From assembly GCA_050248915.1 (NCBI GenBank), contig JBFWRL010000004.1:12673-76672 (forward strand): a DNA stretch of 64,000 nt, given 5' to 3'. The DNA is from Candidatus Sericytochromatia bacterium (GTDB lineage Bacteria; Cyanobacteriota; Sericytochromatia; UBA7694). The first letter of the stretch is position 1. The number at the start of each line of letters is the position of its first letter. Shown here one piece after another: positions 58,343 through 61,135 of this stretch. Under the pieces are notes generated by a model. It did not search any database. It saw only the letters and a list, made by a program, of their open reading frames with translations, and was not told the DNA's origin. A program made the position numbers and the translations under genes.

Positions 58343-61135
58343 TTAATTGCCTCCTTGTGGGTAGAGGATATAGCGGCCTGTATTGGCCAGGGTGTCGTTG
58401 ACCTCCACCTCTAGCGTATGGCCTGGCAGGCGATAGGGCAAGCTAAAACGCACATTGGCGCTGCGGTCGGTGGGTTTCTCCAAAGACCAATCATCCAACT
58501 CCTGGGGGCGTTTTTCTCTGGCACTGGCAATCCAAAAGCCATCGAGGTCCACAGCCGGGCTGGTGTAAAAAGGCGCGTCATCGACAAAGATTTTGAGGGC
58601 ATTGTCTTTGAGTTGGTTTTTGCCGTTGATGATTTCTGCCTCAGACAAAGTGGCCCCACTTTCGTTCACAACAGGGTCAATCAAGGTGAATGAGATATTC
58701 GTTCTGTAGCTCTCCTCTTGGGCGTTGACCAGCTCTTCCTGGATGGTTAGATTTTTTACCACAGGTGGGGTATTGTCGACATGAAAGGGCACGGTATCTT
58801 TATTGACCCCTATTTGGTTGATCATAAAAATCTTGACCGGCACCCCATGGGGATAATCGGGCACCTGCACCAAGACCTGGGGCGGGTCTGCGCCTGCGCC
58901 CACCAGGGGTTTGGGCAAGAAGCGGGCCGTATATTTGCCATCGATCAGGCATGTTTGTTTTTCGTTCCAGCCGTCATACAGAATCGAGGCCAGACCCAGA
59001 TAATTGACAAACACATCGCCATCGTCCCAGTTGCCTTTCTGGGATTTGAGCTTAATATCCCATTTCACAAAGTTGGCACCTGGAAAATTCTGGGTGTTGG
59101 CGGTCGTATTAAAACGCACCTTGTCGAAAAGTTGGTTGATATCTCGTGGAGAAAAAGTCACAGGAGACGAAGGTGCTGACTCATTGATAGAGACATGTTC
59201 AACACCAAAGCCCATCTCAACATAACAGCCAACCCCACTTTGATACCCAAAGTATTTAGGTGGGCAGTAAATACAGCGCCCTTGGTCGGCAATATAGCCG
59301 TCCGGGCATGTGCCATTTTCGTCAGGCTCCGGTTCGGGCGGAGGGGCACAAATGGCTCCTGCTGGGCAGGGGGTGGGAGTGCCCGGTTCTGGGCAAACTG
59401 CTCCTGCAGGACATTCGGGCTCTGGCTCAGGTGGGGCACAGATCCCATCGGGTGGGCAGACAGGTTCTGGCAAAGGAGTTGGATGGGTGGGCTGTGGCGT
59501 GCCTTTGCAACCAGCCAGAGGGCAGAGGGTGCAAATGGCTCCCTCTGGGCAAGGCCGATCGGTGGGCTCTGGGGGCGTTGGTGAGGGGCATTCCGTCCCT
59601 GGCGGGCAGTCTGGTTTTGCTGTGGGTTTGCTGATCGGTGTGGGGGTGGGTTTGGGTCTTGCGGTTGGGCCTGTGCTGGGGGCCTGAATTGTCACACTGG
59701 CCAAGGCCGTTTTTCCGGCGGCTTCCAATTTAAAATCTGCACTGCCAACGCCACTTACGCTGCCATTGGGGCCCTGGCAAACGCCATTCCAGCTAAATGT
59801 GCTACCGGGGGTGCCGAAGTCTTCGGTTTGACAGGCCACGTCTTCAGAGCCCGGCACAGTGCTTCTGAGTGTGCCGCTGACCAGGGTGAGTTTGCCTTTG
59901 GGGCAGATCGGCTGTTTGAGCGCAAAGGTGGCTTGGGTTCCGAGTGTCACAACATAATGTGTGGGATTAAACGCCACTTCGCTGCTGGCCGTCACCGTTG
60001 TTTTTCCGGGCTCTTTGGGGGTATTGGCATCGTCGTATTCGGCGAGCAACTCGTACTCTCCATCGGGAACAGCGCCCCCAAAGGGGATATCTATTTTGGT
60101 GCCCTGCCCACTTGCGATGTCTTTTGCAGTAAAAGAGCAGTCGTCATAGAGCCGTTTGGCTTTGGCCTTGAGGGTCCAATTGCGACTGGGATTAGACGGT
60201 GTGACCTTGATTTTGCTTGGGGCATTGCCCCTGGGATCAATTGTAGCGGGGTCGGCAGAAACCGAGATTGTATCCACCACCTCTTTGATAAACGGAATGC
60301 GTACCGTCATGCTCATCGAACCCGAGGCTCCCCCAATGACCCCGGTATTGAGACAGCCATAAACGGGCGGATCTTCATTTTGATCGACAATTCGCCATTT
60401 CATGCCTGAATTCAGGACGTTGGAGGCAGACAAACTGAAGCCGACAGTTGCCTTTTGGCCTTGGGGATCCAGGGTCAAGCTGGGATTGATCTTGATAGGC
60501 CCAGAGCCAGAACCTTGCACCAATTGACAGATCGCTGGGTCGACACTCGAAATATTTTCAACGCTAAAAATGCTGAAACTGCCCACAATATTTCCAGCAT
60601 AAGAATGGGTGGGCACGTAGTTGACCCCATTGGTGCTGGTAAAATACATATACAAACTGCCAATTTCGCGGCGCAAATAAGGCGGTTCGGGTTTTTCATG
60701 GCCAGCGTAGGCGCTCATGCCCATTTGAACCAAGGTGGCGATTCTTTCGCCATTGTCTTTTTTGCCCCATTGCAAGACCTTAAACCCATAGACATAGTTA
60801 TTGGCGTTGCTCAGTGAGATACTTGCGCTCGTGTTTCCGCCAATACTGGGCCAATTCATGCTTGCGCTCAAGGAGGTCACGGCACAGATATTGCCCCCAC
60901 AGTCTTGGGGATAATCCTGAATTTTAAAATTGTCTGAACGTGGCAAGGCATTTTTTTGGTAATAGACATCTTGAGGAATCCACGAGATGTTGCTCTTGGG
61001 AGATGTGTTTTGGGGGGCTGAATGATTTTGTTCTGTTGTTGTGGTTGTGTTCAAACCCTGAGGGGGTAAGACACAAGACAGCAAAAACAGCAAAAAAATA
61101 CCCCAACCCCATTGGCCCATTTTCATCGCAGACAC
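58343..61135 (-). CDS. 930-aa secreted Cys/Pro-rich protein, translationally coupled to paralog C
   Basis: Signal peptide FLLFLLSCVL. A central hinge has repeated CP[AEP]GAIC / PEPEP motifs. Its stop TAA is followed directly by the ATG of paralog C. Its 3' end is the source of the boundary repeats. Confidence 0.8.
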   Translation of the reverse strand: MSAMKMGQWGWGIFLLFLLSCVLPPQGLNTTTTTEQNHSAPQNTSPKSNISWIPQDVYYQKNALPRSDNFKIQDYPQDCGGNICAVTSLSASMNWPSIGGNTSASISLSNANNYVYGFKVLQWGKKDNGERIATLVQMGMSAYAGHEKPEPPYLRREIGSLYMYFTSTNGVNYVPTHSYAGNIVGSFSIFSVENISSVDPAICQLVQGSGSGPIKINPSLTLDPQGQKATVGFSLSASNVLNSGMKWRIVDQNEDPPVYGCLNTGVIGGASGSMSMTVRIPFIKEVVDTISVSADPATIDPRGNAPSKIKVTPSNPSRNWTLKAKAKRLYDDCSFTAKDIASGQGTKIDIPFGGAVPDGEYELLAEYDDANTPKEPGKTTVTASSEVAFNPTHYVVTLGTQATFALKQPICPKGKLTLVSGTLRSTVPGSEDVACQTEDFGTPGSTFSWNGVCQGPNGSVSGVGSADFKLEAAGKTALASVTIQAPSTGPTARPKPTPTPISKPTAKPDCPPGTECPSPTPPEPTDRPCPEGAICTLCPLAGCKGTPQPTHPTPLPEPVCPPDGICAPPEPEPECPAGAVCPEPGTPTPCPAGAICAPPPEPEPDENGTCPDGYIADQGRCIYCPPKYFGYQSGVGCYVEMGFGVEHVSINESAPSSPVTFSPRDINQLFDKVRFNTTANTQNFPGANFVKWDIKLKSQKGNWDDGDVFVNYLGLASILYDGWNEKQTCLIDGKYTARFLPKPLVGAGADPPQVLVQVPDYPHGVPVKIFMINQIGVNKDTVPFHVDNTPPVVKNLTIQEELVNAQEESYRTNISFTLIDPVVNESGATLSEAEIINGKNQLKDNALKIFVDDAPFYTSPAVDLDGFWIASAREKRPQELDDWSLEKPTDRSANVRFSLPYRLPGHTLEVEVNDTLANTGRYILYPQGGN

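Follow-up and report, generated by a model that had tools for sequence, protein, structure and literature searches.

A predicted modular lipoprotein of a Sericytochromatia bacterium encoded directly ahead of a zinc-protease-like lipoprotein

Gene X and the architecture of its product

The envelope proteins of the Sericytochromatia, an uncultured and non-photosynthetic group related to cyanobacteria, are to our knowledge almost entirely uncharacterized. Here, we analyzed a gene, termed X, in a 64,000-nucleotide stretch of DNA (the window; positions 12,673 to 76,672 of contig JBFWRL010000004.1, assembly GCA_050248915.1) from a Candidatus Sericytochromatia bacterium. An original prediction, made from the sequence alone, had described its product as a 930-residue secreted protein with large beta-rich regions separated by a Pro/Cys-rich hinge, translationally coupled to a lipoprotein gene. 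This downstream partner is called C, and A, B and D are further paralogs of the partner family in the window; labels such as P0001 denote database proteins and labels such as L001 denote loci in other genomes or contigs. The features of X are the following:

58343..61135, minus strand: gene X, longest open reading frame (ORF), 930 amino acids from GTG 61135; stop TAA 58345..58343
61073..61126, minus strand: predicted lipoprotein signal peptide with lipobox MKMGQWGWGIFLLFLLS followed by C, Cys18, the Cys being invariant in orthologs
60998..61072, minus strand: disordered tether, residues 19-43, predicted local distance difference test score (pLDDT) <50
60278..60997, minus strand: N-module, residues 44-283, beta-rich with unusually long strands, motifs F(K/R)IQDYP and S(T)DG
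59684..60277, minus strand: two immunoglobulin (Ig)-like beta-sandwiches, residues 284-381 and 383-481, pLDDT ~90, motif AEYDDANxPKEPG
59327..59683, minus strand: Pro/Cys-rich hinge, residues 482-600, predicted disordered, with Pro-rich spacers between Cys heptads
59192..59326, minus strand: Cys-rich mini-domain of short hairpins, residues 601-645, with C607, C618, C621 and C634
58775..59191, minus strand: C-module sandwich 1, residues 646-784, motif FSPRDxNxxFD ... W ... DGW ... CLIDGKY
58346..58774, minus strand: C-module terminal Ig-like domain, residues 785-927, motifs FxVDNTPPVV, DGFWI, DxxxN and YILYPQGGN

The predicted 930-residue ORF was recovered on the minus strand from GTG 61135, while the public NCBI call for the identical protein of this metagenome-assembled genome (MAG; P0001, AB7I41_01895, hypothetical protein) comprises 927 residues and starts at ATG 61126. 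The sequence AGAGGTG lies 7 nt upstream of this ATG, which is the probable true start. Since the full ORF is kept in four orthologs at 48-73% identity (alignment identities of 73, 65 and 52%) and dN/dS, the ratio of nonsynonymous to synonymous divergence, is 0.13-0.33 across every segment, hinge included, X is a real gene under purifying selection. A tblastn search of the window detected X sequence elsewhere only as the last 39 and 34 codons, directly upstream of paralogs B and A, so that the claim of a single intact copy holds within the window. Outside it, P0005, encoded on another contig of the same MAG, is an X paralog that shares the N-terminal ~480 amino acids. Further, the MAG of L001 has a second X-type gene on L005 (JBIKWL010000261.1), which covers profile positions 1-848 before the contig end cuts it; some genomes thus carry two copies.

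With regard to localization, K2 and a hydrophobic core precede the sequence FLLSC, which conforms to the bacterial lipobox ([LVI][ASTVIL][GAS]C within the first ~40 residues) and ends in Cys18; the lipobox pattern recurs in 22 N-termini across the wider family. The predicted signal peptide was therefore found, but it is of the lipoprotein type, so X would be a lipid-anchored substrate of signal peptidase II rather than a freely secreted protein. From this we infer a location in the cell envelope, the outer membrane being suggested only by the E. coli +2 rule.

An AlphaFold model built from four orthologs was unusable (pLDDT 41.8), whereas an input of 35 trimmed family segments gave a mean pLDDT of 78.5 and confident all-beta domains with almost no helix, in line with the large beta-rich regions that had been proposed. 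The quoted Pro/Cys-rich sequence was present at residues 482-600, of which 34% are Pro and 10% Cys. This hinge contains five CPxGxxC heptads (at 507, 526, 557, 572 and 587) and CPLAGC at 535, its Cys positions are invariant in the four orthologs, and its dN/dS is 0.13-0.30; in the model, disorder spans residues ~482-553 and weak order continues to ~600. Of all parts, the terminal Ig-like domain is conserved most widely across the family. As predicted, X lacks an HExxH metallopeptidase motif, neither HE..H nor H..EH occurring in its sequence.

Scans of X against Pfam and NCBIfam gave no match, and profile searches against PDB sequences with the whole of X, the C-module or the N-module returned nothing significant; a legume-lectin match to an X-derived profile (E 0.38) was discarded. 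In a HMMER profile search of 1.84 billion cluster representatives, only 48 proteins were found at E ≤ 1e-3, and those bearing organism names are from Sericytochromatia. Scanning 185,579 species-representative genomes with the C-module identified three loci, all in Sericytochromatia MAGs. A metagenome scan with the same module gave no match, and a word-indexed search with its profile added just short contigs and a marginal Sel1 protein. X is thus one of a very small number of modular lipoproteins that are unannotated and restricted to Sericytochromatia. Literature searches on Sericytochromatia lipoproteins and on MXAN_6640 found nothing relevant.

Foldseek comparison of the X model with the PDB gave nothing but long multi-sandwich chains, namely mastigoneme, macroglobulin (MG) domains of complement and alpha-2-macroglobulin (A2M), adhesin extender repeats and GhpA, with template modelling (TM) scores ≤ 0.14 (query-normalised) and a root-mean-square deviation (rmsd) >25 Å; the model thus shows a resemblance of class and not a family assignment. 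X shares its all-beta sandwich strings with the Ig-like extenders of adhesins (Foldseek 6xi3, 9flw) and with FlgD_ig/Big-type domains, and its motifs FSPxD and DxTPP...DxxGN recall these sandwich classes. However, the Pfam models do not recognise the domains of X: FlgD_ig (PF13860) did not match X and matched one of 14 C-modules at a non-significant E of 0.027, and no Big_* match was found among the C-modules. The profile searches and structure prediction suggested with the original prediction for the large domains thus yielded predicted beta modules without a known family in Pfam, NCBIfam or the PDB, the N-module and the C-module having no relatives in Pfam or the PDB.

The junction with gene C and the partner lipoprotein family

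The 3' end of X reads CAA GGA GGC AAT TAA ATG, where TAA (58345..58343) abuts the ATG of partner C (58342..58340); the TAAATG stop-start junction that had been described is therefore present. The features downstream of this point, together with the signal that precedes it, are as follows:

58350..58354, minus strand: Shine-Dalgarno (SD) sequence GGAGG for partner C, located inside X, where it is formed by the two Gly codons of the C-terminal PQGGN and lies 7 nt ahead of the ATG
55229..58342, minus strand: partner C, a 1037-residue predicted lipoprotein with a conserved N-domain of ~340 amino acids that weakly matches ZU5, HEMFH...E and a conserved C-terminal ~130 amino acids
51986..55021, minus strand: paralog B, 1011 amino acids, HELFH
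46721..49963, minus strand: paralog A, 1080 amino acids, HENYH

In all loci with readable downstream DNA (8/8), the lipoprotein gene starts between -4 and +26 nt from the stop of the gene encoding the C-module. The junctions were as follows:

Window: TAAATG
L002 and L003: identical AAGGAGGCAATTAAATG
L001/L009: X stop 26 nt earlier, AGGAGGCAATTAAATG kept
L006: TAATG overlap
L015: TAATG overlap
L007: GTGA overlap
L008: ATGA overlap

The signs of translational coupling, a stop/start overlap or abutment and an SD inside X, occur in the window and in five other lineages. Terminal Gly-Gly codons (PQGG, TGGNP) supply the SD in most lineages, which partly accounts for the conserved C-terminal peptide of X. 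An embedded SD also fits the sharp drop of synonymous divergence (dS) in the last 40 codons of X, which was 0.16 between the window and L003 compared to 1.40 for the whole C-module, and 0.55 compared to 1.2-1.3 in pairs with L001; overall, dS in the last 40 codons ranged over 0-0.55, and that of the whole C-module was 1.2-1.4 in distant pairs. A separate promoter or terminator between the two genes had been named as evidence that would speak against the partnership. In a consensus scan, promoter- and terminator-like sites were no commoner than in shuffled sequence, and none was located at the X/C junction.

In L006 (P0025-type) and L015 (P0032-type), unrelated N-terminal parts precede the same C-module, which is again followed by a homolog of the partner that carries HELHH and is 36-37% identical to it in the N-domain and the C-terminus. 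These loci pair despite their different N-terminal parts, so it is the C-module and not the whole of X to which the partner is tied; pairing also holds at identities as low as 26-37%. The pairing is one-sided: HExxH-family genes often occur without a C-module gene, as in paralogs A, B and D of the window and in L012, L013, L014 and L016. Taken together, the sequences strongly support a genetic partnership and translational coupling of X with the HExxH lipoprotein family. The partnership claimed in the original prediction thus stood as regards the coupled junction and the constant company of the C-module gene (8/8), but only the C-terminal module of ~290 amino acids is constant and the partner family is often found alone. 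The adhesin, scaffold or substrate-recognition subunit put forward in the original prediction would be a reasonable candidate role.

X has a LuxR/NarL-type response regulator gene (61247..61918, minus strand) 120 nt upstream in the same orientation, with a strong terminator-like hairpin (62046..62027) ahead of the regulator. The regulator was rejected as a member of the X unit, being absent near X homologs in all other loci.

The conservation of the partner was read from six divergent members, all of which have a lipobox and a strongly conserved N-terminal ~340 amino acids (motifs VTFPNMV and IGPAGGTVELPGV...PAGAL). H563, E564, H567, Q570 and E595 are invariant in the six, which corresponds to a gluzincin-like HExxH with a downstream Glu. 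Family matches were weak and below the curated cut-offs: ZU5 (three paralogs), MXAN_6640_HExxH (NF045524; E 1.8e-5, 24.7 bits compared to a cut-off of 140 bits) and DUF5700. Because of these low scores, the partner is termed a putative gluzincin-like protease on the strength of its motif. The partner, and not X, resembles MXAN_6640-type/Peptidase_MA-like HExxH...E proteins in having HExxH with a downstream Glu and a weak NF045524 match; it differs from them in a score far under the cut-off, and X lacks the motif.

Several further observations concern this family. At L016 (4959..6374), a 471-residue protein consists of the partner N-domain alone (profile positions 12-392), with no C-module gene nearby; the N-domain thus also exists by itself. 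Paralog D (41748..44756, minus strand), which shares 64% identity with B and retains HELFH...EGTA, is likely to be a pseudogene or an assembly error, since its signal peptide differs and its frame is interrupted by two stops (codons 458 and 633). The public NCBI call for paralog B (P0057, AB7I41_01880) comprises 834 residues, compared to the 1011-residue ORF with lipobox and conserved N-terminus, and its start is probably too late.

Exchange of modules, X remnants and the surrounding island

The distribution of modules was read from the domain coordinates of the 48 relatives. The N-module heads many lipoproteins, in which a Pro/Thr linker is followed by unrelated regions that are often long and helix-rich. 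Lipoproteins with such linkers, long helical regions and variable ends are P0044, P0034, P0033, P0015/P0038, P0041 and P0005, the last being the N-module paralog of this kind in the MAG of the window. P0044 ends in an LHH nuclease toxin domain of the HNH fold (PF14411, E 2.9e-12, above the gathering score), P0034 gave weak HNH_2/AHH matches, and P0033 shares its N-part and first coil with P0044 but has a different C-terminal end. The N-module relatives thus present the first two features of polymorphic toxins, a conserved N-part and a variable toxin C-terminus, and they look like a lipoprotein-type polymorphic toxin family in Sericytochromatia. X itself does not qualify under the definition of Zhang et al. 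(2012), as no toxin domain was found in it with Pfam or NCBIfam and its neighbour encodes a 1037-residue lipoprotein. Neither an EndoU motif guessed in P0036 nor the candidate toxin ends of P0005, P0033 and P0041 found confirmation in Pfam, NCBIfam or the PDB.

The other modules are also found in different settings. The Ig-like pair occurs apart from the X architecture in P0011, P0036 and P0052, and the C-module stands behind unrelated N-terminal parts in P0016, P0023, P0025, P0026 and P0032. X itself is a recombinant, because its N-module tracks that of L003 (dN 0.12) and is very distant from that of L002 (dS 2.4), whereas its hinge and C-module track those of L002, to which they are nearly identical (dS 0.08-0.25).

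Remnants of X, comprising the last ~100 nt of the gene, adjoin paralogs A and B directly upstream:

55023..55142, minus strand: X remnant before paralog B, last ~39 codons (tblastn 55026..55142)
49964..50068, minus strand: X remnant before paralog A, last ~34 codons (tblastn 49967..50068)

Each remnant contains a mini-ORF of 32 codons with a TTG start, which ends 1 nt ahead of the ATG in the case of B (55023..55121) and forms a TAAATG junction, as in X/C, in the case of A (49964..50062). Both mini-ORFs are equal in length, with the product MPYRLPGHTLEVEVQDTLANTGRYILYPQGG[S/N], and could be leader ORFs that preserve coupling.

Sliding-window nucleotide identity among A, B and C, with positions given relative to the ATG, revealed a mosaic:

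-78 to -18: remnant block, 97-100% identity among all three
+42 to +150: block in which C resembles B, 91-93% identity
+153 to +800: block in which C resembles A, 93-100% identity
Beyond ~+870: all three paralogs diverged

The regions concerned are 48900..50100, 53700..55160 and 57000..58480 of the window, with abrupt switches between partners. Such switching between blocks of 91-100% identity indicates, at the level of sequence, recent gene conversion or recombination among the 5' regions of the paralogs, with the 3' end of X lying within the shared stretch. Genomes differ in the paralog type after X, which is C-type in the window and B-type in L001 and L002; in L003, it is probably C-type.

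The paralog array (42001..58000) has a guanine-plus-cytosine content of 0.39-0.49, compared to 0.51-0.58 elsewhere in the window, and this lower value suggests a variable island. A DUF6088 and AbiEii pair (type IV toxin-antitoxin; 44753..46524, minus strand) is located directly upstream of paralog D. The pair is also present at L013 (3940..5633, another metagenome), ahead of two tandem partner-family genes, so that this neighbourhood recurs. A TnpB-like gene of the IS605 family (OrfB_IS605 and Cas12f1-like TNB) lies at 37556..38863 of the window. At L012 (8339..10704; GCA_002839735.1, labelled Candidatus Melainabacteria HGW), a 582-residue lipoprotein without the X N-module carries a C-terminal LHH and is followed by an immunity gene of the SUKH_5/SMI1_KNR4 type. 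It is encoded 1.5 kb downstream of a stand-alone partner-family gene, which a phage-type integrase adjoins.

Proposed role of X and its alternatives

X would be an elongated, lipid-anchored, all-beta envelope protein assembled from exchangeable modules, among them a lineage-specific N-module, with a hinge stiffened by short CPxGxxC loops and a C-module that forms the functional link to the neighbouring gene. Translational coupling would provide X in fixed proportion with the HExxH...E lipoprotein. The C-module would bind the latter, and X would act at the cell envelope as a subunit for docking, positioning or target recognition, with the conserved partner N-domain (~340 amino acids) as a plausible common contact. 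That the tail module is always encoded directly ahead of the gene for the protease-like lipoprotein points to a two-protein complex in the envelope. A single intact X accompanies four partner paralogs in the window, and one X could serve several of them, since they share the conserved N-domain and differ in the catalytic region. While physical binding and the biological role are what we infer, we favour an accessory, docking or target-recognition function tentatively, at a little under an even chance. Several points weigh against it. Near-identical C-modules (window and L002, dN 0.02) stand beside partners that are ~47% identical in the N-domain, with no sign of tight co-variation. X and the partner each have their own lipid anchor, so X need not serve purely as an anchor. 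Partner-family genes are common in places that lack a C-module gene, which makes X dispensable for at least some members, and protease activity of the partner is deduced from a motif in proteins whose family matches fall short of curated thresholds.

The strict adjacency and overlapping stop and start codons are also the pattern of 1:1 pairs in which the C-module is a dedicated inhibitor, a folding chaperone or a trans-acting prodomain, coupling giving each protease a keeper. The X gene comes first, so that its product is made before the enzyme, and in the eight loci the C-module gene never occurs without the partner. However, the many partner paralogs that lack a C-module gene would have no such keeper, ~600 amino acids of stalk, hinge and N-module would go unexplained, and Pfam, NCBIfam and PDB profile searches revealed no likeness to a known inhibitor or foldase; we consider this explanation unlikely. 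A comparably low probability is assigned to X being an independent adhesin or surface-layer-like lipoprotein that is merely co-transcribed with the HExxH lipoprotein, without contact between them. Its string of Ig-like sandwiches with a Pro-rich spacer, its best fold matches (adhesin extenders, mastigoneme, GhpA) and the lack of co-variation between C-module and partner N-domain agree with such a protein, but the pairing survives replacement of the whole N-terminal two thirds (L006, L015) and extends across the low identities given above, and most lineages retain the SD within the coding sequence, which is more than co-regulation usually preserves.

It is very unlikely that the C-module is a recognition or sorting domain cleaved or processed by the HExxH lipoprotein, with X as the substrate. 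Consistent with a tag, proteins that otherwise differ invariably end in this module, whose first sandwich is loosely like the FSPxxDG pattern of FlgD_ig-type domains. Nevertheless, there are one or two tagged proteins and up to four "sortase" paralogs per genome, which is the wrong direction; a module of ~290 amino acids is far larger than known sorting tags; neither X nor the 14 C-modules matched type IX secretion system or other C-terminal sorting-domain models in NCBIfam or Pfam; and the cargo is already lipid-anchored. Bacterial A2Ms are lipoproteins whose genes pair with that of an enzyme, and the Foldseek matches of X include A2ML1, CD109 and complement C3/C5 MG-domain chains, as would fit a protease-trap lipoprotein with the hinge as bait region. 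The fold scores given above, however, indicate a generic likeness of sandwich strings, and X has neither a CxEQ (C[GL]EQ) thioester motif nor an A2M or thioester-containing domain (TED) in Pfam, nor a helical TED in the model. An A2M identity was therefore rejected, and this reading is effectively refuted, with hardly any probability left to it.

A broader interpretation is that X and its neighbours form a "cargo-type" lipoprotein polymorphic-effector system with a cassette-swappable, non-covalently loaded metalloprotease lipoprotein. We know of no such system in this phylum, and we regard the interpretation as speculative and improbable. It would build on the N-module family normally carrying fused toxins (LHH/HNH nucleases), X having a docking module at the payload position. 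The X 3' remnants and the conserved 5' kilobase of the paralogs (mosaic, 97-100% identity) would then be recombination cassettes that exchange the X-coupled protease, in parallel with fused and cargo effectors of the type VI secretion system and with orphan contact-dependent inhibition (CDI)/Rhs cassettes.

The nearest known systems resemble the X locus in organisation and not by homology. In Neisseria MafA/MafB islands, the lipobox protein MafA is encoded upstream of MafB, with alternative cassettes downstream, and the conserved MafB N-domain is predicted to dock on lipid-anchored MafA (Zhang et al. 2012, PMC3482391). The X locus likewise has a lipobox protein directly upstream of a partner with a conserved N-domain and a variable remainder, and alternative cassettes follow further downstream. 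However, there is no sequence relation, X is a 927-residue multi-domain stalk, and the downstream protein is an HExxH lipoprotein rather than a toxin with an immunity gene. The SitA lipoprotein polymorphic toxins of myxobacteria have a conserved N-domain and swappable C-termini (PMC5562445), and the lipobox-preceded APD1/APD2 N-domains of Amoebophilus have polymorphic C-termini (PMC3482391). Like the N-module relatives of X, these are lineage-restricted lipoproteins with swappable C-termini, including HNH-fold nucleases; unlike SitA, X has no toxin domain, no immunity gene after it and no sequence similarity. In orphan cdiA-CT/cdiI and Rhs cassettes, 3' gene fragments are repeated downstream before alternative partners (PMC3150448), and such repeated fragments give recombination homology, as the X remnants might at 97-100% nucleotide identity. 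The X locus differs in that the repeated piece is the conserved terminus of X and no new variable toxin tip, variation lies in the downstream HExxH lipoprotein and cassette exchange is read from sequence.

At the X locus, the N-module, the C-module and the partner N-domain each represent a domain family that had no annotation, and the locus gives a clear and testable pairing rule, C-module with HExxH lipoprotein. Further, the N-module is tied to lipoprotein-type polymorphic toxins, a class demonstrated so far only in myxobacteria (PMC5562445). If the idea of cassette swapping is wrong, X would be an ordinary accessory lipoprotein, but still a useful marker family; if it is true, it would be a new way to diversify surface proteases.

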